A DNA stretch of 37,129 nt from a virus (taxonomy: Duplodnaviria; Heunggongvirae; Uroviricota; Caudoviricetes): positions 1 through 37,129 of IMG/VR virus record IMGVR_UViG_2872174743_000010, one strand, 5' to 3'. Made by a program: the position numbers and the translations under genes. Numbering within the stretch: the first letter of the stretch is position 1; each line of letters opens with the position of its first letter. Positions 7,578 through 27,126 of the stretch are shown here, one piece after another. The notes beneath the pieces were generated by a model. The model saw only the letters and a program-made list of their open reading frames with translations, was not told the DNA's origin and ran no database searches.

Positions 7578-7779
7578 GCTGGCCTCCGTGGTGGAAATAC
7601 CGGGGGGTAGCAACAGCTCACCCATGCGGCTCTGACAACGATGTTAACCCGCGTTAAATATCCCACGTTGGCCAGCATCTGTCTCACGGAAAGTCATACT
7701 GCCTTACGTATTTTGCACAGGAGTCGCTGATAAATACGCGTTAATCGAACAATGGCGACAACAATTTCCCATTGAAGCG

Positions 7780-8598: not shown

Positions 8599-8977
8599 AA
8601 AAAGAACAAATGGTAGTGTCCGCTATTGCCAGTACACCTCAGGCAGACCATCAGTCATACCGGGATTAAAAAATGGCTGTGGAGAATCAGAAAAATTCTC
8701 CAGCAAAAAGGTGACCCGGATTTAATACAATGTGATTACCATCTCTGCAATAAACAGTTTTTACCTGAAAAAGCTTTTACTGGCGAGCTTATTTATATGC
8801 ATGGAAACATGATTGCCAGAAAGAAACGAAAATATTGCGGTGCAGCTTGTGCCGAAAAAGACAAGATGGCACACGAACTTTAATTAACTGAATATTCGAA
8901 ACTGAATTTATGCCAGCAATGGGGTAATGCTGCCAACTTACTGATTTAGTGTATGATGGTGATTTTAAGGTGCTTGC

Positions 8978-9253
8978 GTGGCTTCCATTTCCATCAGATG
9001 TCCTTCCTGCTCCGCTACTGAAGGCGTGGTGCGTAACGGCAAAAGCACTGCCGGACATCAGCGCTATCTCTGCTCTCATTGCCGTAAAACATGGCAACTA
9101 CAGTTCACTTACACCGCCTCTCAGCCCGGTACGCACCAGAAAATCATTGATATGGCCATGAATGGCGTCGGATGTCGCGCCAGTGCACGCATTATGGGCG
9201 TTGACCTCAACACGGTTTTCCGTCACTTAAAAAACTCAGGCCGCAGTCGGTAA
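8978..9253 (+). CDS. insA: IS1 InsA
   Basis: [43 protein letters not shown]... Confidence 0.9.
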
Positions 9254-9279
9254 CCTCGCGCATACAACCGGGCAGTGAT

Positions 9280-9571
9280 GTGATTGTCTGCGCTGAAATG
9301 GACGAACAGTGGGGCTACGTCGGTGCTAAATCACGTCAGCGCTGGCTGTTTTACGCGTATGACAGGATACGGAGGACGGTTGTGGCGCACGTCTTCGGTG
9401 AACGCACTCTGGCCACACTGGAGCGTCTTCTGAGCCTGCTGTCGGCCTTTGAGGTCGTGGTATGGATGACGGATGGCTGGCCGCTGTATGAATCACGCCT
9501 GAAGGGAAAGCTGCACGTTATCAGCAAGCGTTACACTCAGCGCATTGAGCGACATAATCTGAATCTGAGAC
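9280..9571 (+). pseudogene. insB: IS1 InsB, 3'-truncated by the IS66-family insertion
   Basis: InsB frame reads ...[14 protein letters not shown] and then continues into IS66 DNA (RKRTA, stop), whereas the intact copy at 25340-25843 continues [13 protein letters not shown]... Confidence 0.75.
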
Positions 9572-9642
9572 GTAAGCGTACAGCCTGAACCGTCTGGTCA
9601 GAATCTGACGAATTAGACAAAGTGGTGTCCACCAAATAAGTA

Positions 9643-10044
9643 GTGGGAACCAAAGTGTCAGATATGCAGAAAAATGTGAATCCCGGCAGGCGAAAAGGCT
9701 GCCCTAATTATCCTCCCGAATTTAAACAGCAGCTCGTTGCTGCCTCCTGTGAACCCGGGATATCCATCTCAAAACTTGCTCTTGAAAATGGCATTAACGC
9801 CAATCTGTTGTTCAAATGGCGACAACAATGGCGCGAGGGAAAGCTGCTATTACCTTCTTCAGAGAGCCCCCAGCTACTTCCTGTGACTCTCGATGCAGCT
9901 GCCGAACAGCCAGAATCGCTCGCAGAGGATCCGGAAACCCTCAGTATCAGCTGTGAGGTAACGTTCCGGCACGGGACGCTCCGCTTCAATGGCAATGTCA
10001 GCGAAAAGCTCCTGACTCTGCTGATACAGGAACTGAAGCGATGA
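9643..10044 (+). CDS. tnpA: IS66-family TnpA (copy 2)
   Basis: ...PEFKQQLVAASCEPGISISKLALENGINANLLFKWRQQWREG...; start uncertain (GTG at 9643 or ATG at 9664). Confidence 0.8.
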   Translation: MGTKVSDMQKNVNPGRRKGCPNYPPEFKQQLVAASCEPGISISKLALENGINANLLFKWRQQWREGKLLLPSSESPQLLPVTLDAAAEQPESLAEDPETLSISCEVTFRHGTLRFNGNVSEKLLTLLIQELKR

Positions 10045-10388
10045 TCCCGTTACCTTCCGGGACCAAAATTTGGCTGGTTGCCGGTATCACCGATATGAGA
10101 AATGGCTTCAACGGCCTGGCGGCAAAGGTGCAGACGACGCTGAAAGACGATCCGATGTCAGGTCACGTTTTTATCTTCCGTGGGCGTAATGGCAGTCAGG
10201 TAAAGCTCCTCTGGTCTACCGGCGATGGACTGTGTCTGCTGACCAAACGGCTGGAGCGCGGCCGCTTCGCCTGGCCGTCAGCCCGGGATGGCAAAGTGTT
10301 CCTCACACCGGCACAGCTGGCGATGCTCCTTGAAGGTATCGACTGGCGGCAGCCTAAAAGACTGCTTACGTCCCTGACTATGTTGTAA
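10041..10388 (+). CDS. tnpB: IS66-family TnpB (copy 2)
   Basis: MIPLPSGTKIWLVAGITDMRNGFNGLAAKV...; ATG overlaps the tnpA stop (ATGA). Confidence 0.85.
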   Translation: MIPLPSGTKIWLVAGITDMRNGFNGLAAKVQTTLKDDPMSGHVFIFRGRNGSQVKLLWSTGDGLCLLTKRLERGRFAWPSARDGKVFLTPAQLAMLLEGIDWRQPKRLLTSLTML

Positions 10389-10436
10389 GCCTCTTTATCC
10401 TGGTCGACGCTGAATGAGCCTGGTAATATACCCGGT

Positions 10437-11975
10437 ATGAGCAGCTCACTTCCTGACGATATCAATGCACTGAAACGTCTCCTTGCCGAACAGGAGGCGC
10501 TGAACCGTGCCCTGCTGGAAAAGCTGAACGAGCGTGAACGCGAAATAGACCATCTGCAGGCACAGCTGGATAAGCTGCGCCGGATGAACTTCGGCAGCCG
10601 CTCCGAAAAAGTCTCCCGTCGTATCGCACAGATGGAAGCTGACCTGAAGGCACTTCAGAAAGAAAGTGATACCCTTACCGGTCGGGTTGACGACCCGGCC
10701 GTGCAGCGCCCGCTGCGTCAAACCCGCACCCGCAAACCGTTCCCCGAATCACTCCCCCGCGATGAAAAACGGCTGCTGCCGGCAGCGTCATGCTGCCCGG
10801 AATGTGGAGGCTCACTGAGCTATCCGGGTGAGGATGCCGCCGAACAGCTGGAGTTGATGCGCAGCGTCTTCCGGGTTATCCGGACTGTACGTGAAAAGCA
10901 TGCCTGTACTCAGTGCGATGCCATCGTGCAGGCCCCCGCGCCTTCACGGCCCATCGAGCGGGGTATCGCAGGACCGGGGCTGCTGGCCCGCGTGCTGATC
11001 TCAAAGTATGCAGAGCACACCCCGCTGTACCGTCAGTCTGAAATGTACGGCCGCCAGGGCGTGGAGCTGAGTCGTTCACTGCTGTCGGGCTGGGTGGATG
11101 CATGCTGCCGGCTACTGTCACCGCTGGAAGAAGCGCTTCAGGATTATGTGCTGACTGACGGTAAGCTCCATGCTGATGACACGCCTGTCCCGGTGCTGTT
11201 GCCAGGCAATAAGAAAACGAAGACCGGGCGGTTATGGACCTACGTTCGTGACGACCGTAACGCCGGGTCAACGCTGGCGCCGGCGGTGTGGTTCGCTTAC
11301 AGCCCGGACAGAAAAGGCATCCATCCGCAGACCCATCTTGCGGGGTTCAGTGGTGTACTGCAGGCGGATGCATACGCCGGGTTCAACGAGCTGTACCGGG
11401 ATGGCCGGATAACGGAAGCCGCCTGTTGGGCTCACGCCCGCCGTAAAATCCACGATGTGCACGTTCGCACCCCGTCAGCCCTGACGGAGGAAGCGCTGAA
11501 ACGGATCGGCGAACTGTACGCCATCGAGGCAGAGATAAGGGGAATGACGGCGGAGCAGCGCCTTGCCGAACGTCAGTTGAAAACGAAACCGCTGCTGAAA
11601 TCCCTGGAAAGCTGGCTGCGTGAAAAGATGAAAACCCTGTCGCGACACTCAGAACTGGCGAAAGCGTTCGCATACGCCCTGAACCAGTGGCCGGCGCTGA
11701 CGTACTATGCAGATGATGGCTGGGCTGAGGCGGACAATAACATCGCTGAAAATGCGTTGCGGATGGTCAGTCTGGGCCGCAAAAACTACCTGTTCTTCGG
11801 TTCGGATCATGGAGGAGAGCGGGGAGCGCTGCTGTACAGCCTGATCGGGACGTGCAAACTGAACGGAGTGGAGCCAGAAAGCTACCTCCGCTATGTACTT
11901 GACGTCATAGCCGACTGGCCGATAAACCGGGTCGGCGAACTGCTCCCCTGGCGCGTAGCACTGCCGACTGAATAA
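10437..11975 (+). CDS. tnpC: IS66-family transposase TnpC (copy 2)
   Basis: 512 aa with the same motif set as copy 1 ([48 protein letters not shown]), but clearly diverged from it. Confidence 0.9.
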
Positions 11976-12012
11976 CACATCCCCGTCAATACGGTTCTTG
12001 CTGCACGCTTAC

Positions 12013-12910
12013 CATTGACGGGCGTGGTCTGGCTGGCGAGATCAGCAAGGAAACGGGTAAATCCCTGCGTGATAACGCTGAATACGTTAATCCCTGGGCG
12101 TCTCTGCATCGTGTTCAGCAATTCCGCTTCTTTGGTATTCCAGGGCGTCAGGCTTACCGTGAACTGCGGTTGTTGGCTGGTCAGGCGGCAAGGCAGCAGG
12201 GTGACAAAAAAGCAGGTGCGCCGGTACTGGATAACCCGCGCCTTGATGCCATCCTGGCTGCTGCTGATGCTGGCTGTTTTGCCACCTACATTATGAGGCA
12301 GGGCGGCGTGCTGGTTCCTCGCAAATATCACTTGATCAGAACCGCTTATGAAATCAATGAAGAGCCGACCGCCTATGGCGATCACGGTATTCGTATTTAT
12401 GGCATCTGGTCACCCATTGCAGAAGGCAAGATCTGCACTCATGCAGTGAAGTGGAAAATGGTTCGTAAAGCCGTTGACGTTCAGGAGGCGGCAGCCGACC
12501 AGGGCGCTTGCGCCCCTTGGACTCGTGGCAATAACTGTCCCCTTGCTGAAAATTTGAACCAACAGGAGAAAGATAAATCAGCTGATGGGAACCCCAGAAC
12601 GGACATTACCAGCATGGATGACAAGGAGTTGCACGATTACCTGCACAGTATGAGCAAAAAAGAGCGCCGGGAACTGGCAGCAAGGTTACGCCTGGTGAAA
12701 CCGAAACGGCGTAAAGACTACAAACAGCGAATTACAGACCATCAGCGACTGCAGCTCGTGTATGAGCTGAAGTCCAGAGGATTTGATGGCAGCGAGAAAG
12801 AGGTCGATTTACTCCTTCGCGGAGGCAGTATTCCGTCAGGAGCAGGCCTGCGTATCTTCTATCGGAACCAGCGTTTGCAGGAAGATGATCAGTGGCGGAA
12901 CCTGTATTAA
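12013..12910 (+). pseudogene. Phage replication protein fragment (P2 gpA-like C-terminal part), 5'-truncated by IS66 copy 2
   Basis: The reading frame is open from the first base after the IS66 end with no start codon ([17 protein letters not shown]...[13 protein letters not shown]... to stop at 12910); position and orientation fit the end of the P2/186 early operon. Identity to gpA is by context, not by recognised motif. Confidence 0.4.
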
Positions 12911-13002
12911 TTACGCGGGTTAACAATTCGTGCTCTTAATAATACCAGGCATATCAGGCTGATGAACGTAAAAAAACGTTTTACATCAGTAAGATTATCA
13001 TA

Positions 13003-13022
13003 TACTGTAAATATAAACAGTG
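13003..13022 (+). promoter_or_regulatory. LexA (SOS) box overlapping a -10-like hexamer
   Basis: TACTGTAAATATAAACAGTG is CTGT-N8-ACAG with an AT-rich spacer, a near-consensus LexA operator; TATACT immediately overlaps it; about 40 nt upstream of the first gene of the pair. Confidence 0.6.
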
Positions 13023-13063
13023 GTTATGCATGCAGTATTGCGTGTGGTGTCATAGGAGGAAAG

Positions 13064-13252
13064 ATGCAGGACTATTTTTTGGAGTCTTTGAAGCTCCAGC
13101 GCATTGATTTTTTTCTTAAGCTTGTAGCGGCTAGTGAGTGTAGTGATGAAGAGAAGGGGCTGGCTCTGCAGTGGGTTTCTGAATTGACTGATGAACTCAT
13201 GGCAAAAATCAGAACCCACGAATACAACCGCTCAATGGATGTCATCAGCTGA
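13064..13252 (+). CDS. Small protein, first gene of the LexA-controlled pair (possible Tum-like antirepressor part)
   Basis: 62 aa from the Met preceded by AGGAGG: MQDYFLESLKLQRIDFFLKLVAASECSDEEKGLALQWVSELTDELMAKIRTHEYNRSMDVIS; no motif recognised. Confidence 0.45.
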   Translation: MQDYFLESLKLQRIDFFLKLVAASECSDEEKGLALQWVSELTDELMAKIRTHEYNRSMDVIS

Positions 13253-13262
13253 GGTGACTTTT

Positions 13263-13496
13263 ATGCGCATTGAAATAATGATCGATAAAGAGCAGAAGAT
13301 TAGCCAGTCTACCCTGGACGCTCTTGAATCCGAGCTTTACCGCAATCTGCGCCCTCTGTATCCCAAAACGGTAATTCGTATCCGCAAAGGTAGCTCTAAC
13401 GGTGTGGAACTTACCGGATTGCAACTGGACGAAGAAAGAAAACAAGTGATGAAAATTATGCAGAAGGTGTGGGAAGACGACAGCTGGCTGCATTAA
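13263..13496 (+). CDS. DinI-like protein
   Basis: MRIEIMIDKEQKISQSTLDALESELYRNLRPLYPKTVIRIRKGSSNGVELTGLQLDEERKQVMKIMQKVWEDDSWLH, with the DinI pattern (MRIE..., ...WEDD.W); GAGGTGA upstream. Confidence 0.75.
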   Translation: MRIEIMIDKEQKISQSTLDALESELYRNLRPLYPKTVIRIRKGSSNGVELTGLQLDEERKQVMKIMQKVWEDDSWLH

Positions 13497-13631
13497 GAAA
13501 CGTTGCTGGCGTCTGAACTAGCTTCTGGCGTCAGCAAGGTTGAACAACGAGCCCTTGCGAGGCGTTAGCTCTGTAGTGCATGTCTATGCCGCATGAGATC
13601 GCATGATCGTTTGAGGATCGTTTTTGCTAAG

Positions 13632-13656
13632 GCCCGCCAGAACTGGCGGGCTTTTG
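13632..13656 (+). terminator. Intrinsic terminator candidate after the DinI-like gene
   Basis: GCCCGCCAG-AA-CTGGCGGGC followed by TTTTGCG. Confidence 0.5.
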
Positions 13657-13700
13657 CGTAGATCATGCAGGTGCATGAAAACCACTACATAAAGCGGGCA

Positions 13701-13719
13701 GGCGTGGCGGGGATACGAT
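13701..13719. other. cos-like site (19 nt)
   Basis: GGCGTGGCGGGGATACGAT; the first 13 nt and last 2 match the cohesive-end sequence of 186 as remembered (GGCGTGGCGGGGAAAGCAT), about 16 of 19; lies between the early and late blocks. Confidence 0.35.
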
Positions 13720-13788
13720 TGCGCGCTAGGTATAAGTGTGTAAAATAATTCCAAAATAAATCATCACTAATGAAGTGAGAGGGTAATA

Positions 13789-15438
13789 ATGTTAGTCAAG
13801 AAAAATAAAAATTATAGTTTATATTTTTTAATTACAAATAATCAACAGATATCTGATTCTGGTAATTATATAAAAATAGTCCCATCAAGAAGCGATTGGA
13901 ATGATTTTGGATATTTGAGTAGAGTCGAAATATCTATTTTTAATAAAAAAGAGTGTAAGGATATAATTTCACTGAATGGTTATATTGGTTTTTTGAATTC
14001 AGAGGAGGAACGAAATGGAAAAGCAGAACTGATAAGGCGAGTGAAAAAAAAGGAAGAATCTAATTTAAAGGATGAGGGGTTTAATGATTATTTTGTCATG
14101 CTTCAGGATATGAATAATTATCGAAGACTAGTAAGATTTTTTGGGGTGAATGAATCCAAATATATATTAAATTTCATTAATGATGTTGTTTCTAAGAAAA
14201 GTGACGCTAGTGCAGAGAATTTGAGGAAAAAAGCAATCTCTTCTGATATCTTTAATAAATCTTTCATTAGAGAGTCTGAGTCGTATTTTACTTTCAAAAA
14301 TGCAGGAACAGTTCTTTCCGGTATTCAATATGAGGAGTTGGGTAATTTATCACAGCACATCAAGATTAGCTATTCGAATAAAGTTAATGAAGAAGATGTA
14401 TCTTATGTTTTTAATTTTGATCACGAGCATGATTTACCAAAAAGAATTTCCATAATTATAGGCGAGAATGGTGTAGGAAAAAGCCAAACGCTTAGAGAAA
14501 TCGCATTGGCTGCGATTAAAGGAAAGGATAATTTGGTGGCTGTAGTTGATTCTAACGGTGTGAGCATTGAAGAACGAATTCAAATTAGTAGGCTCATTGC
14601 TTTTTCTCCAACAAATGAAAGTAAGTGTTCATTTCCAACCGATAAAAGAATAAAATCATTGATATGGTACAAAAGATTGACTTTAAATCGTGAATCAAAA
14701 TCCAAATTAAACTTGAATGATTTAATAGTGCAACTAGCGAGGAGTAACGACGCTATCGGCTATAATCAAAGGTGGAATATATTTGTTGATGCACTGAGTG
14801 TTCTAAATAGTAACAACGATTTAGTAATCAAATGTGGCGGTGAAAATTCACCATTTGTTAAATTAAATGAGCTTAATTCTCGAGGCGAAGAATCTAGACT
14901 ATCATTATATTCTGAAATTATTCTCTCTGGCGAGCCTTTGAGGCTTATTGAAAATAAATGTTACCCTTTGAGTAGTGGGGAAATATCGTTTATTAAGTTT
15001 TGTGTACAAGTTTGTTTGTATATTGAGAATGGGACTCTTCTATTAATAGATGAGCCAGAAACACATCTCCATCCTTCATTTATTAATAAATTTATGGCAT
15101 TGCTTGATAATTTATTAGAAAAGACAGGCTCTTCAGCTATCATAGCAACGCATTCGGTTTATCTTGTTCGGGAGGTTTTTAAGGAGCAAGTGACAATACT
15201 CAGAAGACGAGATGATGGGGTAATTGTTAGCGAAAAACCGAGATTGAGTACTTTTGGGGCGAATATAGGAAATATCTCATATTTTGTTTTCGGTGAGAGT
15301 GAACCAACTCAAATTTTAAATAAAGTAAAAAACAATATAATTGCAAAGAATATGTCTTGGGATGATGTTGAATCTAAATATAGCGAGGACTTATCACTTA
15401 ATGTATTAACTGCGTTGAGAAATGAAATGGGCAATTGA
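13789..15438 (+). CDS. ABC-type ATPase (AAA_21/AAA_15-like), Septu PtuA-like, with a ~215 aa N-terminal extension
   Basis: 549 aa; Walker A GENGVGKS (aa 225-232, nt 14461-14484), signature-like YPLSSGE (about aa 393-399), Walker B LLLIDEPE (aa 417-424), H-loop-like IIATHS (about aa 451-456); very AT-rich; GAGAGGG RBS. Confidence 0.7.
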   Translation: MLVKKNKNYSLYFLITNNQQISDSGNYIKIVPSRSDWNDFGYLSRVEISIFNKKECKDIISLNGYIGFLNSEEERNGKAELIRRVKKKEESNLKDEGFNDYFVMLQDMNNYRRLVRFFGVNESKYILNFINDVVSKKSDASAENLRKKAISSDIFNKSFIRESESYFTFKNAGTVLSGIQYEELGNLSQHIKISYSNKVNEEDVSYVFNFDHEHDLPKRISIIIGENGVGKSQTLREIALAAIKGKDNLVAVVDSNGVSIEERIQISRLIAFSPTNESKCSFPTDKRIKSLIWYKRLTLNRESKSKLNLNDLIVQLARSNDAIGYNQRWNIFVDALSVLNSNNDLVIKCGGENSPFVKLNELNSRGEESRLSLYSEIILSGEPLRLIENKCYPLSSGEISFIKFCVQVCLYIENGTLLLIDEPETHLHPSFINKFMALLDNLLEKTGSSAIIATHSVYLVREVFKEQVTILRRRDDGVIVSEKPRLSTFGANIGNISYFVFGESEPTQILNKVKNNIIAKNMSWDDVESKYSEDLSLNVLTALRNEMGN

Positions 15439-16303
15439 AATGAATAAATTAAAAAGACCTGTTTTTAAAGATTATTCTGCATTTAAAAAACTATCTGCAA
15501 ATAAGAGATTAAAACATCATTCTGTTCTGAATGGACAGGATACATTTATACTTAATGCATATAGATCGTACATAAAGAATAAAGGGTATCTTAATGTCAA
15601 TTCTTGTGGCGTATTGAGTAACAATATTGCTGAAGCTTTGAGATATTATTATAACAATCCCGCAAAGTGTTTATCTATAATTGATGATATAAGAGCAGCT
15701 AATTCTAACTCTCTATGTCCAATGTGTGGTTCAATGCATAGCGGGACTTTGGATCATGTTTTACCCAAGGAAAACTATCCAGAATTTTCTTTATTCACTA
15801 AGAATTTGGTTCCTGCTTGCAAATGTAATACTTTCAAAAGTACTACTATAGCTAATTCTGCAGGCCATCGGATGCTGCATCCATATTTTGATAATATATT
15901 AAAACAAAGATTAATATGTGCTAATTTTTCTAAATTAGGGCGAACACCTACAATTGATGTAAAAATCATAATTGACCCAATGTCACCAGAATATAACAAT
16001 GTTAAGTATCATCTTGATAATGTTGTTATCAAGAATAATATTAAGGGGTATTTGTCTGAACAATGGGAGTCGTTTTACTTATATCCTGAGCTTGTTATTA
16101 GAGGACTGAATAAGAGTCTTTCTACTTATAGCGATGTATATGAGTTGTTGACTCGCGAGTTGTTGCTGTTGGATGAAAAACATAAAGGTAAAAATAATTG
16201 GAATTCGGTTTTTGTAGCTGGGTTAATTCGACCTGATGTGATTAGGTGGATACTCTGTGAATTACATTTAGGTAACAGAAGTCCAGACGGTCGTCTCATA
16301 TGA
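15422..16303 (+). CDS. HNH endonuclease, Septu PtuB-like
   Basis: 293 aa; HNH core CPMCGSMHSGTLDHVLPKENYPEFSLFTKNLVPACKCN (aa 99-136); start overlaps the upstream stop by 17 nt (a second in-frame ATG sits 1 nt after the stop). Confidence 0.7.
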   Translation: MKWAIEMNKLKRPVFKDYSAFKKLSANKRLKHHSVLNGQDTFILNAYRSYIKNKGYLNVNSCGVLSNNIAEALRYYYNNPAKCLSIIDDIRAANSNSLCPMCGSMHSGTLDHVLPKENYPEFSLFTKNLVPACKCNTFKSTTIANSAGHRMLHPYFDNILKQRLICANFSKLGRTPTIDVKIIIDPMSPEYNNVKYHLDNVVIKNNIKGYLSEQWESFYLYPELVIRGLNKSLSTYSDVYELLTRELLLLDEKHKGKNNWNSVFVAGLIRPDVIRWILCELHLGNRSPDGRLI

Positions 16304-16410
16304 TTTTTTGCATCTTCAGCGTGTATCTGCACGCTGAAGAAATTCATAAAAACTGCTGCCTATTAATAAATTTTTTTAGCTGAGTTAAAGAACCTCATTT
16401 AGTGATTACG

Positions 16411-17445
16411 TTAAGTAGCTAGTTTATAACTATCAAATTTAACAATGTTATCACTTACCAATTTATTTATTTCCATCATTCTTTTTTGTAACGGTATTAA
16501 CTCGTTACGTACAAACACCAGGCTCGCCTTCTCCACATCCCCAAACCCCCCGACATTATTAGGCATAATCCCCATCATTTGCGGTGGCACACGATGCGCC
16601 GCCATCATGTCATCCCGGCTCACGTTCTTGATGTTCAGAAACTCATCCTTCGCCGCGACTTCTGACAACGGGATGATCTGAAGCCCGTCCTTTTTGCCGT
16701 TAGGCGAGTACATAAACAGATTGCGGAAGTTACCTGGTCCTTTGGCGCTTTTCATCGCATTGCGGAGGTTGTTCACATCCTCCTGGTTTTGCGCGGCATC
16801 GGTCATGTACATGATGAAGCCTGCATGACTGCCGTTAATGTAATACTATCGGCGGAACAGCGTGGCGGACTCGTTGAGCAGGGCTGACGGAATGGCAGAA
16901 AGGTAACCTGGCAGGCCGTAGATCTCTTGGTTGATGTCCGGTTCCATCAGATGAAAGATGCTTCCTTTCGTGAACTGATACGGCTGCGTGGTCATGCCGT
17001 ATTGCACAAACCAGTAGGTATCCAGGTCTAATCCGCGTCGGGTGTATTTTGCCAGAGCAGGCTCAAGAGCGATGACCTCTCCGAACCGGTTTGTGCGTTT
17101 CTCCAGGTAAGCGTTACCAAATACCAGATAATCCTGCACAAAACGTGAAAAAGCCTGCTGGCTGAGCAGCGGGTGAGGGATGTAGGTACTGATCAGAATG
17201 TTGCATTTCACCGCAATTGGTGAACTGTGATGCACGGCGGCGCGGAAGGTGCGCGCCAGTCCGTCAAAACTCACTGGCGGCTCATACCAGCGATCTGTCT
17301 GTACGCATTCCACATAGTCCAGTAGTTCACGGCGGTCCAGAACCGGAACGGGATCGCCGAAGCTGAATGCTTCGGCTGAAGTCTGGTTTTTATGCTGGGT
17401 CTGTTTCGTCGCCGCAGCGCGGTTCTTCTTACTCTTTCCCATCAA
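16411..17445 (-). pseudogene. Q: Portal protein (P2 gpQ-like) interrupted by an in-frame TAG
   Basis: Track ORFs 16846..17445 and 16411..16812 are in the same frame; protein reads ...ATLFRR-stop-YYINGSHAGFIMYMTDAAQ...; the TAG is at 16846-16848 on the minus strand. Confidence 0.8.
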
Positions 17446-19208
17446 AAAATCTCCACAATATTGCTGGTATTGGCGGACTCGCCCTGCAGCGGTTCGTTAA
17501 ACAGTGCGTGCATTGTTGCCCAGGCCAGATCGGCATGGCTGGCTTCTTCGCTGCGGCTGGCTTCATAGGTCGGGCGGTTGCCGCTGGCGGTGGTGGCGCG
17601 ACGGATTGCCATGAATGACTGCGCAATGTCGGTGTGCCCGGCGTCAAACTCAAGACGGCGGTGGCTGATAATGTCGTAGGCCTTGAGTACCAGGGCGTTT
17701 TTAACGTTGGGGTTGTAGACAAACTCCCGGACGGCAGGAAAAAACGCTTTCACGTTCTCGTAAACCCCGTGACCAACGCCGGTTGAGTCGATGCCGATAT
17801 AGGTCACGTTGTACTGTTCAGTCAGTTTTTTGATGGCGTAAGCCTGGGCGCGAAAGTCCATTCCGCGCCACTGGTGACGCTCAAGAATGCGGAACTTACC
17901 GCCTGGCACGGCTGGCGGTGCCACCACCACGCATCCGGCGCTGTCGCCGTTCTGCGTACCTTTTGCCGGGTCATAACCGATCCACACTTCGCGCCAGCCA
18001 AACGGGCGCAGGGCCAGTGCATGAAAGTCGGTCCAGACTTCCCAGCTGTCCACCATGCACGCCTGCAATTCGCTGAGCGGGAACACGGACGCGAGATCGT
18101 CCACGAACTCGCACATCAGCAGGTTCTGGTATTCGTCAGGGCTGTACTCCATGCGCAACTGGTCAAGGTCGAACAGGTTACAGGCGCCGCGCACCGCATC
18201 TTCCACGGTGACTATCTGGCGGTATTGCCCGTCTGCGCACAGCAGGCCGGGGGCCAGATTGCTGTGGGACAGGTCGATGTCCACCTTGTCAGCTTTGTTG
18301 CGCCCACGGTTGAACAGCGCACCGGACCAGAACGGATAAGCACTGTGGGTCAGACTGGATGGTGTGGAAAAATAGGTCTGCCGCCATTTCTTGTGAATAG
18401 CCATACCAGAAGCCACTTTGCGTAGCTCCTGAAATTTCGGTATCCAGAAATATTCATCCAGATACAGGTTACCGTGATAACTCTGGGCAGTGCGGGCATT
18501 GGTGCCGAGGAAATACAGTGTGGCCCCGTTGGGAAGCACCATCGGATCGCCTTTCAGCTCCACCTCCACTTCTTTGGCAAAGTCGATGATGTACTGTTTG
18601 AAGACGTGGGCCTGTGCCTTACTGGCAGAAAGGAAAATCTGGTTACGTCCGGTAAGCAGGGCGTCAATCAGGGCTTCACGGGCAAAATAGAAGGTCGCGC
18701 CGATCTGGCGTGACTTCAGCAGGTTGCGGATGCGGTTGGTTTTTCCGGCTTCCCACCAGTGGCGCTGGTAGTTGAACATGGAGGAATGGAAATTTTTTTC
18801 CAGCTTCTCAATCTGGTCATCGGTGAAAACATTCTTTTCAGGCTGACGGCGTGGGCCTTTGTTGCGGTTGGCGACGTTAGGGTTTAAGTCGGCTTCGTTG
18901 CCGCCATTGTTAAACTTGCCGATCCGCGCGTGGCGCTCAGACTGGCGCGCCAGCAGGTCAATATCTTTGAAATCTTTCCCTTCTTTGTGCTCCTTCATGA
19001 TGAGCTGGCAGTAGCGTGCGGCGGTGGTGAGCTGCATCTGATCCAGAGGCCCATAGTCACCCCACTTGTCGCGTTTTTTCCAGCTGTAAACGGTTGCAAC
19101 TTTCTCGCCCAGCATTTCAGCAATGCGGGCTACGCGGTATCCCTGAAAGTACAGCAGCATGGCCTGCCGACGGGGATCGAGATCTGCGGGTGTCAGTGTG
19201 GTGTTCAT
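17442..19208 (-). CDS. P: Terminase large (ATPase) subunit, P2 gpP-like
   Basis: 588 aa; collinear with P2 gpP as remembered; start overlaps the portal gene. Confidence 0.9.
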   Translation of the reverse strand: MNTTLTPADLDPRRQAMLLYFQGYRVARIAEMLGEKVATVYSWKKRDKWGDYGPLDQMQLTTAARYCQLIMKEHKEGKDFKDIDLLARQSERHARIGKFNNGGNEADLNPNVANRNKGPRRQPEKNVFTDDQIEKLEKNFHSSMFNYQRHWWEAGKTNRIRNLLKSRQIGATFYFAREALIDALLTGRNQIFLSASKAQAHVFKQYIIDFAKEVEVELKGDPMVLPNGATLYFLGTNARTAQSYHGNLYLDEYFWIPKFQELRKVASGMAIHKKWRQTYFSTPSSLTHSAYPFWSGALFNRGRNKADKVDIDLSHSNLAPGLLCADGQYRQIVTVEDAVRGACNLFDLDQLRMEYSPDEYQNLLMCEFVDDLASVFPLSELQACMVDSWEVWTDFHALALRPFGWREVWIGYDPAKGTQNGDSAGCVVVAPPAVPGGKFRILERHQWRGMDFRAQAYAIKKLTEQYNVTYIGIDSTGVGHGVYENVKAFFPAVREFVYNPNVKNALVLKAYDIISHRRLEFDAGHTDIAQSFMAIRRATTASGNRPTYEASRSEEASHADLAWATMHALFNEPLQGESANTSNIVEIF

Positions 19209-19254
19209 GGCACAAACCTACAGCCTTGAATGAAGGCTTTCCCCGCCTGCGGTT

Positions 19255-19272
19255 TGTGTGGTTGTCGGTACA
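19255..19272. promoter_or_regulatory. TGT-N12-ACA element in the divergent P/O promoter region (Ogr/B-type late activator site)
   Basis: TGTGTGGTTGTCGGTACA in the 142-bp spacer between the divergent terminase and scaffold genes. Confidence 0.4.
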
Positions 19273-19350
19273 AATACCGCGCATTGTTTCACTGCCCCTA
19301 TCACCGCAACCATAAGGCTCCAGTAAGTTTTTTCTAACGGAGCACGGCTC

Positions 19351-20184
19351 ATGACAGTGAAAGCAAAGCGTTTTCGCATCGGGGTGGAAGGTGCCACCAC
19401 CGACGGACGCGAAATCCAGCGTGAATGGCTGGAACAGATGGCAGCCAGCTATAACCCGGCGGTGTATACCGCGCTGATTAACCTTGAGCACATCAAGTCT
19501 TATCTGCCGGACAGCACCTTTAACCGCTACGGCAAGGTGACGGCGCTGTTTGCTGAAGAAATCACGGAAGGTCCGCTGGCAGGCAAGATGGCGCTGTATG
19601 CTGACGTTGAGCCAACGGAGTCCCTGGTGGAACTGGTGAAAAAAGGCCAGAAATTATTCACCTCTATGGAAGTCAGCCCGAAGTTCGCTGATACGGGCAA
19701 AGCCTACCTGGTCGGCCTGGCTGCCACTGATGACCCTGCCAGTCTGGGCACTGAAATGCTGACATTCAGCGCCAGTGCAGCCCATAACCCGCTGGCAAAC
19801 CGCAAGCAGAATCCCGCCAATCTCTTTACCGCCGCAGAGGAAACGGTGATCGAACTGGAAGAAGTCCAGGACGACAAACCGTCCCTGTTTGCCCGCGTCA
19901 CGGCGCTGTTTACCAAAAAAGAGCAGTCCGATGACGCCCGGTTCTCTGATGTGCATAAGGCCGTGGAGCTGGTCGCCACTGAGCAGCAGAACCTGAGCGC
20001 ACGCACCGAAAAATCCCTGTCTGAGCAGGAAGAACGCCTGTCTGAGCTGGAGACTGCCCTGCAGGCACAGCAAACCGCCTTTAACGAACTGGTGGACAAG
20101 CTGAGTCATGAAGACAGCCGCCAGGACTACCGCCAGCGTGCAACAGGCGGTAACGCCCCCGCTGACACTCTGACCAATTGCTGA
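19351..20184 (+). CDS. O: Capsid scaffolding protein, P2 gpO-like
   Basis: 277 aa, MTVKAKRFRIGVEGATTDGREIQREWL..., acidic coiled-coil C-terminus; synteny P-O-N. Confidence 0.85.
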   Translation: MTVKAKRFRIGVEGATTDGREIQREWLEQMAASYNPAVYTALINLEHIKSYLPDSTFNRYGKVTALFAEEITEGPLAGKMALYADVEPTESLVELVKKGQKLFTSMEVSPKFADTGKAYLVGLAATDDPASLGTEMLTFSASAAHNPLANRKQNPANLFTAAEETVIELEEVQDDKPSLFARVTALFTKKEQSDDARFSDVHKAVELVATEQQNLSARTEKSLSEQEERLSELETALQAQQTAFNELVDKLSHEDSRQDYRQRATGGNAPADTLTNC

Positions 20185-20200
20185 TGGAGCACAAAACCTG

Positions 20201-21259
20201 ATGAAGAAGAATACCCGCTTTGCTTTTAACGCTTACCTGCAGCAACTGGCGCGTCTGAACGGTGTGGCAGTTGAAGAACTGTCCAGCAAGTTCACCGTAG
20301 AGCCGTCCGTGCAGCAGACGCTGGAAGACCAGATCCAGCAGTCCGCCGCTTTCCTGACTCTGATTAACGTCACGCCAGTGACTGAGCAGTCCGGTCAGCT
20401 GCTGGGGTTGGGAGTTGGCAGCACCATTGCCGGAACCACTGATACCACTGCGAAAGAGCGTGAACCTGTCGATCCGACGCTGATGGTCGATGTGGAATAT
20501 AAATGCGAGCAGACCAACTTTGACACGGTGCTGACCTACGCGAAGCTGGACCTGTGGGCGAAGTTTCAGGATTTTCAGGTGCGTATCCGTGACGCCATCG
20601 TGAAACGTCAGGCACTGGACCGCATCATGATCGGCTTTAATGGCGTGAAGCGTGCGAAAACCTCCAACCGTAGCGAAAACCCGCTGCTGCAGGATGTGAA
20701 TAAAGGCTGGCTGCAGAAAATCCGTGAGGATGCACCGGATCACGTCATGGGCAGCACCACCACGGGCGGTGAAACCACACCGGGCGCAGTGAAAGTCGGG
20801 AAAGGTGGCGAATATGCCAACCTGGACGCCGTGGTGATGGATGCCGTCAATGAGCTTATCGACGTGGTCTACCAGGACGATGACGATCTGGTGGTGATTT
20901 GCGGTCGTGAACTGCTGTCTGACAAGTATTTCCCGCTGGTCAACAAAGAGCAGGAAAACAGTGAAAAACTGGCTGCCGATATGATCATCAGTCAGAAACG
21001 CATGGGTGGCCTGCAGGCCGTGCGTGCGCCGTTCTTCCCGCCGAATGCGCTGCTGATCACCCGTCTGGATAACCTGTCCATCTACTGGCAGGAAGACACC
21101 CGCCGCCGTTCAGTTATCGACAACCCGAAACGTGACCGGATTGAAAACTTTGAATCCGTTAACGAAGCCTATGTGGTTGAGGACTACCGCTGCGCCGCAC
21201 TGGTGGAAAACATCCAGATTAGTGATTTCAGCGCCGCCGCAGCCGAAACCGGAGCGTAA
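20201..21259 (+). CDS. N: Major capsid protein, P2 gpN-like
   Basis: 352 aa; ...TRFAFNAYLQQLARLNGV...KFTVEPSVQQTL...IMIGFNGVKRAKTS...VKVGKGGEYANLDAVVMDA..., highly similar to P2 N as remembered. Confidence 0.9.
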   Translation: MKKNTRFAFNAYLQQLARLNGVAVEELSSKFTVEPSVQQTLEDQIQQSAAFLTLINVTPVTEQSGQLLGLGVGSTIAGTTDTTAKEREPVDPTLMVDVEYKCEQTNFDTVLTYAKLDLWAKFQDFQVRIRDAIVKRQALDRIMIGFNGVKRAKTSNRSENPLLQDVNKGWLQKIREDAPDHVMGSTTTGGETTPGAVKVGKGGEYANLDAVVMDAVNELIDVVYQDDDDLVVICGRELLSDKYFPLVNKEQENSEKLAADMIISQKRMGGLQAVRAPFFPPNALLITRLDNLSIYWQEDTRRRSVIDNPKRDRIENFESVNEAYVVEDYRCAALVENIQISDFSAAAAETGA

Positions 21260-21262
21260 TCC

Positions 21263-21913
21263 ATGAGCCTGAGTCCCGCACGGCAGCATCGCCTGCGCGT
21301 TCAGGCTGAACAGGCCGCCCGTGAGGGTGGCAGTGTTCGCCACGCATCGGGCTATGACCTGATGCTGCTGCAACTGGCGGAAGACCGCCGCCGTCTCAAG
21401 GGCGTTCAGTCCACGGTCAAAAAAGCGGAAATCAAAGTGGAGCTGCTGCCGAAGTACGCCGCCTGGGCGGAGGGTGTCCTGGCTGCCGGAGGCGCTCAAC
21501 AGGATGACGTGCTGATGTACGTGATGTTGTGGCGCATTGATGCCGGAGATTATGCCGGGGCGCTGGAGATCTGGCGTCATGCCCTGCGTCATGGATGGGT
21601 GATGCCGCTGGGCAACCGCAACGTGCAGACCGTGCTGACAGAGGAAATGGCAGATGCAGCGCAGAGCGCAATGCTTGCCGCCACCGGCTTTGATGCCGAT
21701 CTGTTGCTGCAGACGCTGGAGCTGACAGACGGTCTGGATATGCCGGACCAGTCACGGGCACGTCTGCATAAAGCGATTGGCGCGGTCCTGAGTGAAAGCA
21801 ATCCGGCTTCCGCCCTTAATCATCTCAACCATGCGTTACAGCTCGATCCCCGCTGTGGCGTGAAAAAAGACAAACAGCAGCTGGAGCGCAGACTGCGCAA
21901 TGACAGCCGCTGA
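21263..21913 (+). CDS. M: Terminase small (endonuclease) subunit, P2 gpM-like
   Basis: 216 aa directly after N; synteny and size. Confidence 0.75.
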   Translation: MSLSPARQHRLRVQAEQAAREGGSVRHASGYDLMLLQLAEDRRRLKGVQSTVKKAEIKVELLPKYAAWAEGVLAAGGAQQDDVLMYVMLWRIDAGDYAGALEIWRHALRHGWVMPLGNRNVQTVLTEEMADAAQSAMLAATGFDADLLLQTLELTDGLDMPDQSRARLHKAIGAVLSESNPASALNHLNHALQLDPRCGVKKDKQQLERRLRNDSR

Positions 21914-22008
21914 CAGAACGTGCCCCCGCGCACGGGCGGCACGGGGTGGCGAAAGGCACAGCCACATCAAAACCCCGTCCACCGCCCTTTATTTCAGGAG
22001 AAAGCAGC

Positions 22009-22455
22009 ATGAAGTTTGTTGCGCCAGAACAGGCACCGGAACAGGCGGAAATCATTAGAAATACGCCGTTCTGGCCTGATGTGGACCTGTCGGAGTTTCG
22101 CAGTGTCATGCGCACTGACGGCACGGTGACGCAGCCGCGTTTAAAGTAGGTTGCACTGTCGGCAATTTCGGAGGTTAACGCAGAGCTGTATGAATTTCGC
22201 AGACGCCAGCAGATGCTGGGGTATGCGTCGGAACAGCTGGACGGGAAAAGTGAGCGCATTCAGCACTATTTCAACGCGGTTTACTGCTGGGCTCGCGCCA
22301 TGCTCAACGAACGTTTCCAGGACTATGACGCCACGGCATCCGGTGCGAAGCGGGGCGAAGAACTGGCGGAAGCAAGCGGTGATTTGTGGCGTGACGCCCG
22401 CTGGGCCATCAGCCGGGTGCAGGACGCGCCGCACTGCACAGTGGAGCTTATCTGA
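22009..22455 (+). pseudogene. L: Head completion protein (P2 gpL-like) interrupted by an in-frame TAG
   Basis: MKFVAPEQAPEQAEIIRNTPFWPDVDL...TQPRLK-stop(TAG 22147-22149)-VALSAISEVNAELYEFRRRQQMLGYASEQ...; the two parts share one frame and together align with gpL. Confidence 0.75.
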
Positions 22456-22658
22456 TGAAAGTGCGTGCGCATCAGTATGACACGGTGGACGCGCTTTGCT
22501 GGCGTCATTACGGGCGCACGCAGGGTGTCACGGAGCAGGTACTGAAGGCAAATCCGGGGCTTGCCGAATACGGCCCCTTTGTACCTCACGGGCTGCAGGT
22601 GGAGCTGCCGGACATTCCGACCACCACCACCGTGCAGACCGTCCAGCTATGGGACTGA
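22455..22658 (+). CDS. X: Tail protein X (P2 gpX-like)
   Basis: 67 aa, MKVRAHQYDTVDALCWRHYGRT...; ATG overlaps the gpL stop. Confidence 0.8.
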   Translation: MKVRAHQYDTVDALCWRHYGRTQGVTEQVLKANPGLAEYGPFVPHGLQVELPDIPTTTTVQTVQLWD

Positions 22659-22661
22659 ATT

Positions 22662-22877
22662 ATGACGCTTGAGCGAATCAGCGCCTTTATCACGTATTGC
22701 ATCGCCGTCGTGCTGGCCTGGCTGGGCGATTTGTCCATCAAGGATGCCTCAACGCTGGGCGGCCTGATGATTGGTGTGCTGATGCTGGCTATCAACTGGT
22801 ACTACAAACACAAAGCCTACCAGCTTCTGCGCGACGGGCAGATCTCGCGGGAGGACTATGAATCCATCAATCGTTAA
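22662..22877 (+). CDS. Holin (small, two predicted TM helices)
   Basis: 71 aa, hydrophobic segments ISAFITYCIAVVLAWLG and LGGLMIGVLMLAINWYY, charged C-terminus; immediately upstream of the endolysin. Confidence 0.6.
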   Translation: MTLERISAFITYCIAVVLAWLGDLSIKDASTLGGLMIGVLMLAINWYYKHKAYQLLRDGQISREDYESINR

Positions 22878-23370
22878 ACGCTGCCTTGTCGGGGCCGTGC
22901 TGGCTATTGCTGCCACGCTGCCGGGTTTTCAGCAGCTTCACACCTCCGTGGAGGGACTGAAACTGATTGCCGATTACGAAGGTTGTCGTCTGCAGCCGTA
23001 TCAGTGCAGCGCGGGTGTCTGGACCGACGGTATTGGTAATACGTCGGGCGTCATTCCCGGCAAAACCATTACGGAGCGACAGGCAGCAGAAGGGCTGATC
23101 TCCAACGTGCTGCGTGTGGAGCGGGCGCTTGAAAGGTGTGTGAAGCAACAGCCGCCGCAGAAGGTGTATGACGCTGCGGTGTCGTTTGCCTTCAACGTGG
23201 GTACGGGCAATGCCTGCAGTTCCACGCTGGTGAAATTGCTCAATCAGCGGCGCTGGGCGGATGCGTGCCGACAGTTGCCGCGCTGGGTTTATGTGAAAGG
23301 TGTTTTTAATCAGGGGCTGGATAACCGCCGTGCGCGGGAGATGGCCTGGTGTTTACAGGGAGCAAACTGA
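22858..23370 (+). CDS. Endolysin (lysozyme), probably with an N-terminal signal-anchor-release segment
   Basis: 170 aa; N-terminal KRCLVGAVLAIAATLPGF followed by a lysozyme-like domain (...EGCRLQPYQCSAGVWTDGIGNT...). Confidence 0.8.
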   Translation: MNPSIVKRCLVGAVLAIAATLPGFQQLHTSVEGLKLIADYEGCRLQPYQCSAGVWTDGIGNTSGVIPGKTITERQAAEGLISNVLRVERALERCVKQQPPQKVYDAAVSFAFNVGTGNACSSTLVKLLNQRRWADACRQLPRWVYVKGVFNQGLDNRRAREMAWCLQGAN

Positions 23371-23371
23371 A

Positions 23372-23749
23372 ATGAAAAAGAAATTAATCAGCGGGCTGTT
23401 TCTGATGTTATGGATGGCGCTGTTAATCGCAGCAATAGTGTATCCGCAGGGGATTTTTCCGGTACTGGCAGCGTCCGGCGTTTGGGTAGCCTGTTTACTG
23501 ACATGGGCGGTAATTCCGGTAGCACTGGCTTCGTTAATTAAGAATGGCCCGCTCTGGCAGGAGTTGAGGGCATCTTTACTGAAGACAATTACCCGAAAAG
23601 AAAACGTATTTATCAGCTGGGTGATACGATTGCTGATTGTCGTCAGTCTCGCCTGGACGGGGTGGGCCATTACCCTGGTCTTTTATCTGCTGACCGTTAT
23701 TGCCTTCTGGATCACCCGTAATCAGATGGCGCAACAGGTAGCCGCATGA
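23372..23749 (+). CDS. LysA-like membrane protein
   Basis: From the Met at 23372: MKKKLISGLFLMLWMALLIAAIVYP..., with several TM segments; sits in the P2 lysA position. Confidence 0.5.
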   Translation: MKKKLISGLFLMLWMALLIAAIVYPQGIFPVLAASGVWVACLLTWAVIPVALASLIKNGPLWQELRASLLKTITRKENVFISWVIRLLIVVSLAWTGWAITLVFYLLTVIAFWITRNQMAQQVAA

Positions 23750-24174
23750 ACCGGTTGCTGCTGGTTGTGCTGGCGTTATTATTGGCGGCGCTGGGCTGGC
23801 AGACGTGGCGGCTGGCTGATGCCAGCCAGACCATCAGCACGCAGGCAGACGAGCTGCAGAGCAAAAGCCAGGCACTGGCAAAGAGCAACAGCCAGCTTAT
23901 CAGCCTGTCCATTCTGACTGAAACCAATAACCGGGAGCAGGCGCGGCTCTATGCCGAAGCAGAACAGACCAGTGTACTGCTGAGACAACGACAACGCCGG
24001 ATTGAGGAACTGAAACGTGAGAACGAGGATTTACGTCGCTGGGCTGATACTCCTTTGCCTGCTGACATTATCCGGCTGCGGGAACGTCCGGCACTCACCG
24101 GAGGTGCAGCTTACCGTCAGTGGTTGTCCGCGAGTGACGCCGTGTCGGCTGGAGCAGGCAGCGCCGCGCACTAA
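23746..24174 (+). CDS. LysB-like inner-membrane spanin
   Basis: 142 aa, N-terminal TM (LLLVVLALLLAALGW) then coiled-coil; P2 lysB position. Confidence 0.65.
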   Translation: MNRLLLVVLALLLAALGWQTWRLADASQTISTQADELQSKSQALAKSNSQLISLSILTETNNREQARLYAEAEQTSVLLRQRQRRIEELKRENEDLRRWADTPLPADIIRLRERPALTGGAAYRQWLSASDAVSAGAGSAAH

Positions 24175-24307
24175 CGGTGATCTGAATGCGTTGCTGGATG
24201 AAACGGAGGCCGCCTGGGCGGTCTGTGCAGACAAAGTGGACATGATTATTGCGTGTCAGGAGCGAAATAGTGAACAAACCACAATCCCTGCGCCACGCCC
24301 TCAATAA
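24017..24307 (+). CDS. LysC-like outer-membrane spanin lipoprotein, embedded out of frame in lysB
   Basis: Lipobox LTLSGC followed by a proline-rich short protein; overlapping +1 frame within and beyond lysB, as in P2 lysC. Confidence 0.55.
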   Translation: MRTRIYVAGLILLCLLTLSGCGNVRHSPEVQLTVSGCPRVTPCRLEQAAPRTNGDLNALLDETEAAWAVCADKVDMIIACQERNSEQTTIPAPRPQ

Positions 24308-24701
24308 AGCAGTGCCTTATGTCCGTAATAACCCGGACAAACTGCATCTGTTTGTGGATAACGGTTCGCTGGTTGCCTCCGGGGCTAGCTCCATGTCATG
24401 GGAGTACCGCTACACCCTGAACGTGGTGATTGAAGATTTCAGCGGCGACCAGAATCTGCTGATGGCCCCGGTTTTGCTGTGGCTGCGGGATAACCAGCCC
24501 GATGCGATCAATAACCCGGCGTTACGGGAAAAGCTATTCACCTTTGAGGTGGATATTCTGCGCAACGATGTCTGTGATATCAGCCTTAACCTGCAACTGA
24601 CGGAGCGTGTGCTGGTCAGCACTGACGGCAGTGTGTCGAACGTTGAAGCGGTAGCGGAACCTGATGAACCTGAAGAAATGTGGACGGTGAAACGTGGCTG
24701 A
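24270..24701 (+). CDS. R: Tail completion protein R (P2 gpR-like)
   Basis: ...LHLFVDNGSLVASGASSMSWEYRYTLNVVIEDFSGDQNLLMAPVLLWLRDNQPD...; GTG start 7 nt after AGGAG. Confidence 0.75.
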   Translation: MNKPQSLRHALNKAVPYVRNNPDKLHLFVDNGSLVASGASSMSWEYRYTLNVVIEDFSGDQNLLMAPVLLWLRDNQPDAINNPALREKLFTFEVDILRNDVCDISLNLQLTERVLVSTDGSVSNVEAVAEPDEPEEMWTVKRG

Positions 24702-25095
24702 ATTGCAGAAGGTGGACGACTGGCTGAGTGCATTATTGGCGAATCTGGAGCCAGCCGCAAGAAGCCGCATGATGCGCCAGCTGGCGCAGGAACTGCGCCG
24801 GACACAGCAGCAGAACATCAGGATGCAGCGCAATCCAGATGGCAGCAGTTATGAGCCGCGCAGGGTAACAGCACGCAGCAAAAAGGGGCGCATCAAACGT
24901 CAGATGTTTACAAAGCTGCGCACCACAAAATACCTGAAAACTGCAGCCAGCGCCGATTCTGCCAGCGTACAGTTTGAAGGTAGGGTGCAGCGCATTGCCC
25001 GTATTCACCATTACGGCTTGAGTGATCGCGTCAGTCGAAAAGGTATTTATACCATCTATGCGAAAAGGCAGTTATTAGGTTTTAATGTCCGGTAA
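24694..25095 (+). pseudogene. S: Tail completion protein S (P2 gpS-like), C-terminus cut by IS1
   Basis: 133 aa frame runs into the IS1 left end (stop supplied by GGTAATGC); P2 gpS is longer as remembered. Confidence 0.65.
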
Positions 25096-25145
25096 TGCTG
25101 CCAACTTACTGATTTAGTGTATGATGGTGATTTTAAGGTGCTTGC

Positions 25146-25421
25146 GTGGCTTCCATTTCCATCAGATGTCCTTCCTGCTCCGCTATTGAAGGCGTGGTGC
25201 GTAACGGCAAAAGCACTGCCGGACATCAGCGCTATCTCTGCTCTCATTGCCGTAAAACATGGCAACTACAGTTCACTTACACCGCCTCTCAGCCCGGTAC
25301 GCACCAGAAAATCATTGATATGGCCATGAATGGCGTCGGATGTCGCGCCAGTGCACGCATTATGGGCGTTGGCCTCAACACGGTTTTACGTCACTTAAAA
25401 AACTCAGGCCGCAGTCGGTAA
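25146..25421 (+). CDS. insA: IS1 InsA
   Basis: [43 protein letters not shown]... Confidence 0.9.
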
Positions 25422-25843
25422 CCTCGCGCATACAACCGGGCAGTGATGTGATTGTCTGCGCTGAAATGGACGAACAGTGGGGCTACGTCGGTGCTAAATC
25501 ACGTCAGCGCTGGCTGTTTTACGCGTATGACAGGATACGGAGGACGGTTGTGGCGCACGTCTTCGGTGAACGCACTCTGGCCACACTGGAGCGTCTTCTG
25601 AGCCTGCTGTCGGCCTTTGAGGTCGTGGTATGGATGACGGATGGCTGGCCGCTGTATGAATCACGCCTGAAGGGAAAGCTGCACGTTATCAGCAAGCGTT
25701 ACACTCAGCGCATTGAGCGACATAATCTGAATCTGAGACAACATCTGGCAAGGCTGGGACGGAAGTCACTGTCGTTCTCAAAATCGGTGGAGCTGCATGA
25801 CAAGGTCATCGGGCATTATCTGAACATAAAACACTATCAGTAA
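25340..25843 (+). CDS. insB: IS1 InsB frame (expressed as InsAB' by frameshifting)
   Basis: ...[45 protein letters not shown]...HYLNIKHYQ; full-length, unlike the copy at 9280. Confidence 0.85.
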
Positions 25844-25858
25844 GTTGGCAGCATTACC

Positions 25859-26390: not shown

Positions 26391-26417
26391 CCCCGGTTTT
26401 TATTCAGGGGATTGATC

Positions 26418-26984: not shown

Positions 26985-27032
26985 GTCAGTATTATTTTGA
27001 TTTTTCCTGTAAGCGGACAAATACCGTCATTT

Positions 27033-27050
27033 TGTGTGAATAACGACACA
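27033..27050. promoter_or_regulatory. TGT-N12-ACA element upstream of FI (Ogr/B-type late promoter activator site)
   Basis: TGTGTGAATAACGACACA about 80-95 bp upstream of the FI start codon. Confidence 0.4.
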
Positions 27051-27126
27051 ACTGCGCTTAGCTGTTTGTCAGGCACAATCACTTCAACATAGGGCGAAGC
27101 CTAATCCAATCAGGAGGTTCGCCACT

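Follow-up and report, generated by a model that had tools for sequence, protein, structure and literature searches.

Two amber codons in the head genes of a P2/186-type prophage remnant very probably reflect ordinary stepwise decay in Shigella

Introduction

The genes Q and L of bacteriophage P2, which encode the portal and a head-completion protein, were genetically defined through conditional-lethal amber mutants. Like the DNA described here, these classical mutants carry single-base TAG codons in the portal and head-completion genes; unlike it, the laboratory ambers lie in an otherwise intact genome and are grown on suppressor hosts, whereas the present genome is irreparably deleted and its stops are natural, of different ages and fixed in wild Shigella lineages. 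Cryptic and defective prophages, and reductive evolution driven by insertion sequences (IS), are also known in Shigella and E. coli. Reductive evolution has been described for the group comprising Sb227 and S. flexneri 6 (PMC8767353). The cryptic prophages of Shigella and E. coli share with the element studied here vertical inheritance, nested pseudogenising point mutations, IS insertions and deletions, and near-neutral substitution, and we find no essential difference between them and it.

Here we analyse a stretch of 37,129 nucleotides (hereafter the window) in which two head genes are each interrupted by an in-frame TAG, a pattern for which the original prediction had offered both prophage decay and dependence on an amber-suppressor host. 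The window very probably holds a defective P2/186-type prophage remnant that lies at the rcdA (ybjK)/ybjL site of a Shigella chromosome and has decayed in ordinary, stepwise fashion.

Results

A P2/186-type remnant beside ybjL

Pfam families and their order identify the stretch between about 12.0 and 34.3 kb as a P2/186-type (Peduoviridae) prophage remnant. Families follow one another in P2 order through the head genes (Phage_portal, Terminase_6, Phage_GPO_N, Phage_cap_P2, Phage_term_smal and Phage_GPL), the lysis and tail genes (tail_X, holin, lysozyme, LysA/B/C, GpR and tail_S) and the right arm (invertase, sheath, tube, E, tape measure, GpU, GPD and Ogr_Delta). The head, lysis and tail genes and the flanking host genes were placed as follows.

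16411–17442, minus strand: portal pseudogene, homologue of P2 Q and 186 W (translation, comparison with the intact relative L001, alignment with P2 and 186)
17442–19208, minus strand: terminase P, open
19351–20184: scaffold O, open
20201–21259: major capsid N, open
21263–21913: small terminase M, open
22009–22455, plus strand: head-completion pseudogene, homologue of P2 L and 186 Q (translation, comparison with L001, alignment with P2 and 186)
22455–25095, plus strand: X, holin, lysozyme, LysA, LysB/LysC and R, all open (Pfam, open reading frames)
24694–25095, plus strand: truncated S
26418–26984, plus strand: invertase
27127–28299, plus strand: sheath FI
28309–28824, plus strand: tube FII
28879–29181, plus strand: E
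29308–32386, plus strand: tape-measure pseudogene, homologue of P2 T (extra G, frameshift relative to L001)
32383–32868, plus strand: U
32865–33965, plus strand: D
34056–34274, plus strand: zinc-finger late activator of the Ogr/Delta type, intact, last prophage gene on the right
34510–36195, minus strand: host gene ybjL (Pfam Asp-Al_Ex/TrkA_C)
36465–36842, plus strand: host gene ybjM (Pfam YbjM)

Within the E. coli collection, the complete relative nearest to the window is L001, an intact prophage that lies between rcdA and ybjL in strain UPEC-245U/190328 (NZ_CP049845.1). It shares the gene order of the window, with 99.6% nucleotide identity over 12013–25090 and 99.8% over 26337–32267, and carries the same accessory pair of ATPase and HNH genes. 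A second intact relative (L012, strain Z1322HEC0003), which is 94–97% identical, was used as outgroup, and the phages P2 (AF063097) and 186 (U32222) provided distant relatives whose portal and head-completion genes (P2 Q and L, 186 W and Q) align over their full lengths. In the window ogr is followed by ybjL and ybjM, and in both intact relatives the integrase adjoins rcdA (ybjK), which places the window in the same chromosomal neighbourhood as its relatives. An A/T-rich stretch at 34280–34500, between ogr and ybjL, probably contains the right attachment site; the left prophage junction of the window has been lost through IS rearrangement.

One-step amber codons in the portal and head-completion genes

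The portal gene runs on the minus strand from an ATG at 17442 to a stop at 16411–16413 and translates into a P2 Q-type protein of 343 codons, in which NESATLFRR is followed by a TAG and then by YYINGSHAG. This TAG, at 16846–16848 (plus-strand 'cta'), is the only internal stop of the gene, and translation of the minus strand bears out its earlier placement in frame. Window position 16848 is A, against T in both intact relatives, so that a minus-strand AAG codon (Lys199) has become TAG. Protein alignment places lysine at the same position in P2 Q and 186 W as well, within the invariant motif NESATLFRRKYY. The resulting K199* change splits the gene into an N-terminal fragment of 198 aa and a C-terminal open reading frame of 133 aa (16411–16812). 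Given established knowledge of P2 morphogenesis, truncation at residue 198 of 343 is expected to cost the C-terminal half of the protein and, with it, a working portal ring and DNA packaging.

In the head-completion gene, TVTQPRLK precedes and VALSAIS follows a TAG at 22147–22149, again the only internal stop and, as translation confirms, in the frame that had been proposed. Here the window has T at 22147 where both intact relatives have C, turning CAG (Gln47) into TAG; the corresponding residue is Glu in P2 L and Asn in 186 Q. The gene had been described as otherwise full length, but it also lacks 18 bp in frame near 22229, removing six residues, LAEVPA, that are conserved as LADVPA in P2 and 186. 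An L protein cut at residue 46 of 154 is expected to be unable to complete heads. Since X and the lysis genes follow L in the P2 O operon, one might further speculate that the amber codon in L lowers their expression through polarity.

The intact relatives carry AAG and CAG at the two positions and, like P2 and 186, run on to normal gene ends, from which it follows that both TAGs are one-step nonsense mutations. Comparison with related prophages thus upholds the view that neither site is a natural gene end, although the proposed derivation of both stops from Gln or Glu codons holds for L (CAG) and fails for the portal, where the ancestral codon is AAG.

Further lesions across the element

The two nonsense codons are accompanied by a frameshift, an in-frame deletion, two IS insertions and large deletions, and these lesions, along with the lack of an early region, set the window apart from L001, in which every gene is open. 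The tape-measure gene constitutes a third inactivated structural gene, absent from the original prediction. An extra G at 31305–31307 (GG to GGG) causes a +1 frameshift and a premature stop at 31627–31629, giving a product of 773 aa as against 1025 aa in the intact gene. A substitution at 31485, downstream of the frameshift, corresponds to Pro to Leu in the correct T frame. Two regions of IS-associated loss and the replaced early region comprise the following features.

25091–25858, plus strand: IS1 copy (blastn against L001; Pfam InsA and DDE_Tnp_IS1)
9572–12012, plus strand: IS66-family element in replication gene A (blastn against L001; ISEc8-like hits)
1–9571, no strand assigned: early-region replacement, lambdoid fragments with an IS pile (Pfam, open reading frame list, blastn)
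1–339: IS3-family orfA
548–970: YdaT, lambdoid-prophage fragment (Pfam)
1259–1666: HTH repressor, lambdoid-prophage fragment (Pfam)
2459–3283: Rha/Ash, lambdoid-prophage fragment (Pfam)
about 3407–6156: IS66-family copy
6450–7625: IS110-family copy
7780–8598: IS3-family orfB
8923–9571: partial IS1

The IS1 copy stands in for the last 47 bp of S, leaving 133 aa as against 147 aa in L001, and for the genes of DUF5677, V, W, J, I and the constant part of H. Relative to L001, the baseplate and tail-fibre genes have lost about 6 kb, including most of H and the tail-fibre assembly genes, and the IS1 abuts a flipped fragment of the invertase-controlled invertible tail-fibre segment (25859–26353). On the left, homology to L001 begins at window position 12013 (L001 position 15714), within the replication endonuclease gene, and gene A is represented by a C-terminal remnant only (12013–12910). 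IS66-type Pfam families were found for the corresponding element in the Shigella copies L002 and L007. By blastn, the integrase, CI, CII and dam region of L001 had no match in the window. The accumulation of IS elements together with lambdoid fragments in 1–12012 points to an IS-mediated rearrangement that joined two prophage remnants.

These lesions bear directly on the possibility that the element is a suppressor-dependent phage, in which a host amber-suppressor tRNA would read both TAGs and which would be viable in suppressor hosts only. Such a reading, which we regard as very improbable, accounts for the fact that both premature stops are TAG and that both fall in essential head genes. Suppression would nonetheless rescue nothing here: the element has no V, W, J or I, and it has lost most of H, the integrase and immunity genes and half of A, while T is frameshifted and a conserved six-residue segment is missing from L. 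Because of these other lesions and missing essential genes, reading through both ambers would give no viable phage. Likewise, given the essential genes that are missing, the remnant would be unable to form phage particles, a conclusion drawn from gene content. The tRNA genes of the host cannot alter the verdict that the element is dead.

Nested distribution of the lesions among Shigella copies

Window positions 6846–27442 are 100% identical to the Shigella chromosome CP026834.1 (L007), which is closely related to Sb227-type Shigella chromosomes. CP000036.1 (L003) corresponds to S. boydii serotype 4 Sb227 (PMC8767353). Our literature search returned nothing specific on CP026834, nor any account of this prophage from S. 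boydii.

The portal TAG is present in all ten Shigella chromosomes (L002–L011), S. boydii Sb227 included, and the L TAG in five of them. Group A (L003, L004, L005, L009 and L011) retains an intact L of 154 aa, with CAG and the 18 bp in place; group B (L002, L006, L007, L008 and L010) combines the L TAG with loss of the 18 bp and with an IS66-family element in A, so that deletion and amber co-occur in all five. This nesting, with one stop in ten of ten copies and the other in half of them, identifies the process as stepwise, vertically inherited decay. The portal amber is the first among the point lesions, and the L amber arose later in one sub-lineage; the two therefore differ in age.

The IS1-linked deletions have different end points in groups A and B. 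In L011, which has no such deletion and also keeps a flank of TetR-family, MFS and hydrolase genes, IS1 lies beside S while DUF5677 and V are still there, indicating that insertion of IS1 preceded the deletions. One other Shigella genome has a third, independent CAG to TAG change, located in its remnant of gene A (window-equivalent 12500), which again exemplifies amber as the most frequent stop reachable in one step.

The same truncated products recur widely. In the public assembly collection, 1377 blocks contain the exact 198-aa portal fragment, and the ten longest of these places are all chromosomes; the exact 46-aa L fragment is present in 351 blocks. The 773-aa T product appeared in 32 blocks, one of them a Logan assembly of a single sequencing run, and is thus on record in the fewest assemblies of the three, although block counts require exact protein identity and long products such as this one are undercounted. 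An exact-match scan additionally detected the portal TAG in two short IMG/VR contigs; a 42-mer spanning the portal amber had no exact match among the GTDB species representatives.

These counts make it exceedingly improbable that the stops are base-calling errors of one assembly. Several 1-bp differences among the Shigella assemblies do fall in homopolymer runs and are perhaps long-read errors, which lends such an artefact some plausibility, but both stops are substitutions rather than homopolymer indels, identical truncated products recur in the 1377 and 351 blocks, many complete chromosomes among them, and the two IMG/VR contigs share the portal TAG. Their presence in Logan assemblies of individual sequencing runs likewise shows that the stops are not the errors of a single assembly.

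Homopolymer differences of this kind recur among the Shigella assemblies (L004, L008, L010 and others) at window-equivalent positions 16551 (C-run), 16377 (T-run), and 16352 and 15122 (A-runs), and could stem from errors in long reads. We had considered 1-bp deletions past the portal amber (16551 and others) as continued decay of the gene, and dropped them as candidates since homopolymer runs surround them and unrelated assemblies show the same changes.

Near-neutral substitution and the chance expectation for amber codons

With changes polarised by L012, the lineage of the window has accumulated 26 derived coding substitutions, of which 15 are non-synonymous, 2 are nonsense and 9 are synonymous. 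Relative to a neutral N:S ratio of 2.5–3.3, the observed 17 N to 9 S corresponds to an omega of about 0.6–0.8, based on small counts. Late genes across the 11 Shigella copies show 30 N to 15 S, and P, O, N and M have several derived non-synonymous changes though still open. This pattern indicates relaxed selection on the phage genes, with near-neutral substitution.

Enumeration of all single-base changes in these genes gave a stop-creating share of 3.2–3.7%, and hence an expectation of 0.83–0.97 nonsense changes among 26 coding substitutions, with a probability of 0.20–0.25 for two or more. TAG is the commonest one-step stop here (43–53% of such stops), and the probability that both stops are TAG, given two nonsense changes, is 0.19–0.28. 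Two ambers lie within the neutral expectation for 26 substitutions and need no special explanation.

The same calculation weakens the case for suppressor dependence, to which the tRNA content, codon usage and history of the element also speak. Among the 26 genes that the window retains, not one ends in TAG, a point in favour of suppressor dependence. Yet in the intact relative L001 TAG ends 3 of 43 prophage genes (about 7%), a usage at which 0 of 26 is unremarkable, and the window contains nothing that corresponds to the regions in which those three genes lie, which accounts for the absence. ARAGORN predicted no tRNA gene, suppressor or otherwise, in the 37-kb window, and the two ambers arose at different times. 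Common amber suppressors insert Gln, Ser, Tyr or Leu; the residue lost at the portal stop is an invariant Lys. As its damage extends well beyond the two stops, and as these have no single origin, the element does not qualify as a suppressor-dependent phage. The proposed likeness to amber mutants, or dependence on a suppressor host, accordingly finds no support in view of the other lesions, the different ages of the stops and their occurrence in more than 1000 natural-isolate assemblies.

Programmed readthrough or recoding of TAG in this phage lineage would be the other way to give the two codons a function, and it is close to inconceivable. The host is an enterobacterium with the standard genetic code. 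Apart from the presence of two in-frame TAGs, nothing speaks in its favour, and there are just two of them; in the intact close relatives each of the two sites is a sense codon, TAG is a true terminator in the same three L001 genes, and the window encodes no suppressor tRNA.

An intact ATPase and HNH pair amid the decay

Between DinI and the portal gene, a position occupied in P2 by non-essential accessory genes, lie two intact genes.

13789–15438, plus strand: AAA_15/AAA_21 ATPase, intact (Pfam, PADLOC)
15422–16303, plus strand: HNH nuclease, intact (PADLOC)

PADLOC matched the pair to PDC-M01A (3e-55), PtuA (1e-31) and PDC-M01B (1e-33), which makes it a candidate anti-phage defence pair. Septu (PtuA ATPase and PtuB HNH) and PDC-M01 likewise consist of an AAA_15/21 ATPase followed by an HNH nuclease; the best matches, however, belong to a candidate system (PDC) rather than a validated one, and a defence role here is putative. 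In our literature search, mentions of PDC-M01 came from two genome surveys only. Across the Shigella copies the pair has 0 N to 3 S derived changes, compared with 30 N to 15 S in the late genes (Fisher p = 0.047), which is weak evidence that it is still under selection while the surrounding phage decays.

This contrast raises the possibility of selected domestication, whereby the portal knock-out immobilised the prophage to the benefit of the host, the remnant was kept for its useful pair, and the stops are adaptive. Several observations would fit: the portal amber is common to all Shigella copies examined and to more than 1000 assembly blocks, and the defence-like pair, with its matches to PDC-M01A/B and PtuA, is intact and has only synonymous changes. 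The contrast nevertheless depends on three substitutions, no selection is required for a change to become fixed in a clonal, bottlenecked Shigella lineage, and the ATPase of L004 is shortened, though this may be a homopolymer error; we therefore consider adaptive stops unlikely. A portal amber that came early and immobilised the element, with the remnant since retained for the pair under purifying selection as a defence, is a similarly doubtful prospect. If true, it would make the element a domesticated, defence-carrying prophage relic and not pure junk.

Discussion

Ordinary prophage decay, the first explanation offered for the two stops, is well supported by the deletion in L, the frameshift in T, the loss beside IS1, the IS66-family insertion, the missing early region and the near-neutral substitution. 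In the sequence of events that we propose, lesions accumulated one by one once the element was no longer selected as a phage. In an ancestor that the window has in common with S. boydii Sb227, a change of A to T made TAG of the portal Lys199 codon AAG, and a later C to T change in one sub-lineage converted the L Gln47 codon CAG into TAG. The same sub-lineage lost the 18 bp of L and acquired the IS66-family insertion in A. A +1 frameshift arose in the tape-measure gene and is recorded in fewer assemblies, while deletions adjacent to IS1 took out the baseplate and tail-fibre genes, and an IS-mediated rearrangement the early region.

The genes P, O, N, M, X, R, FI, FII, U and D and the lysis genes are still open, and could be read as having retained function; open late genes are equally expected for a young remnant with about 0.2–0.4% divergence. 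Taken together, the findings describe a textbook case of a defective prophage, one more example from a Shigella genome that is rich in IS and undergoing reductive evolution. Annotation should treat its portal, L, T, S and A genes as pseudogenes of a defective P2/186-type prophage, and the element should be counted neither as an inducible phage nor as evidence for natural amber suppression. Beyond correct annotation its importance is little, the intact candidate defence pair amid the decay being a mildly interesting by-product.

The nested lesions could be used as lineage markers in the Shigella cluster containing S. boydii Sb227. Individual copies also carry variants of their own, including a 4-bp deletion (ATTT) in the 3' part of the portal gene of L010 (window-equivalent 16469) and, in L006, a 12-bp deletion in dinI (13271) and a 21-bp insertion in the scaffold gene (20048).
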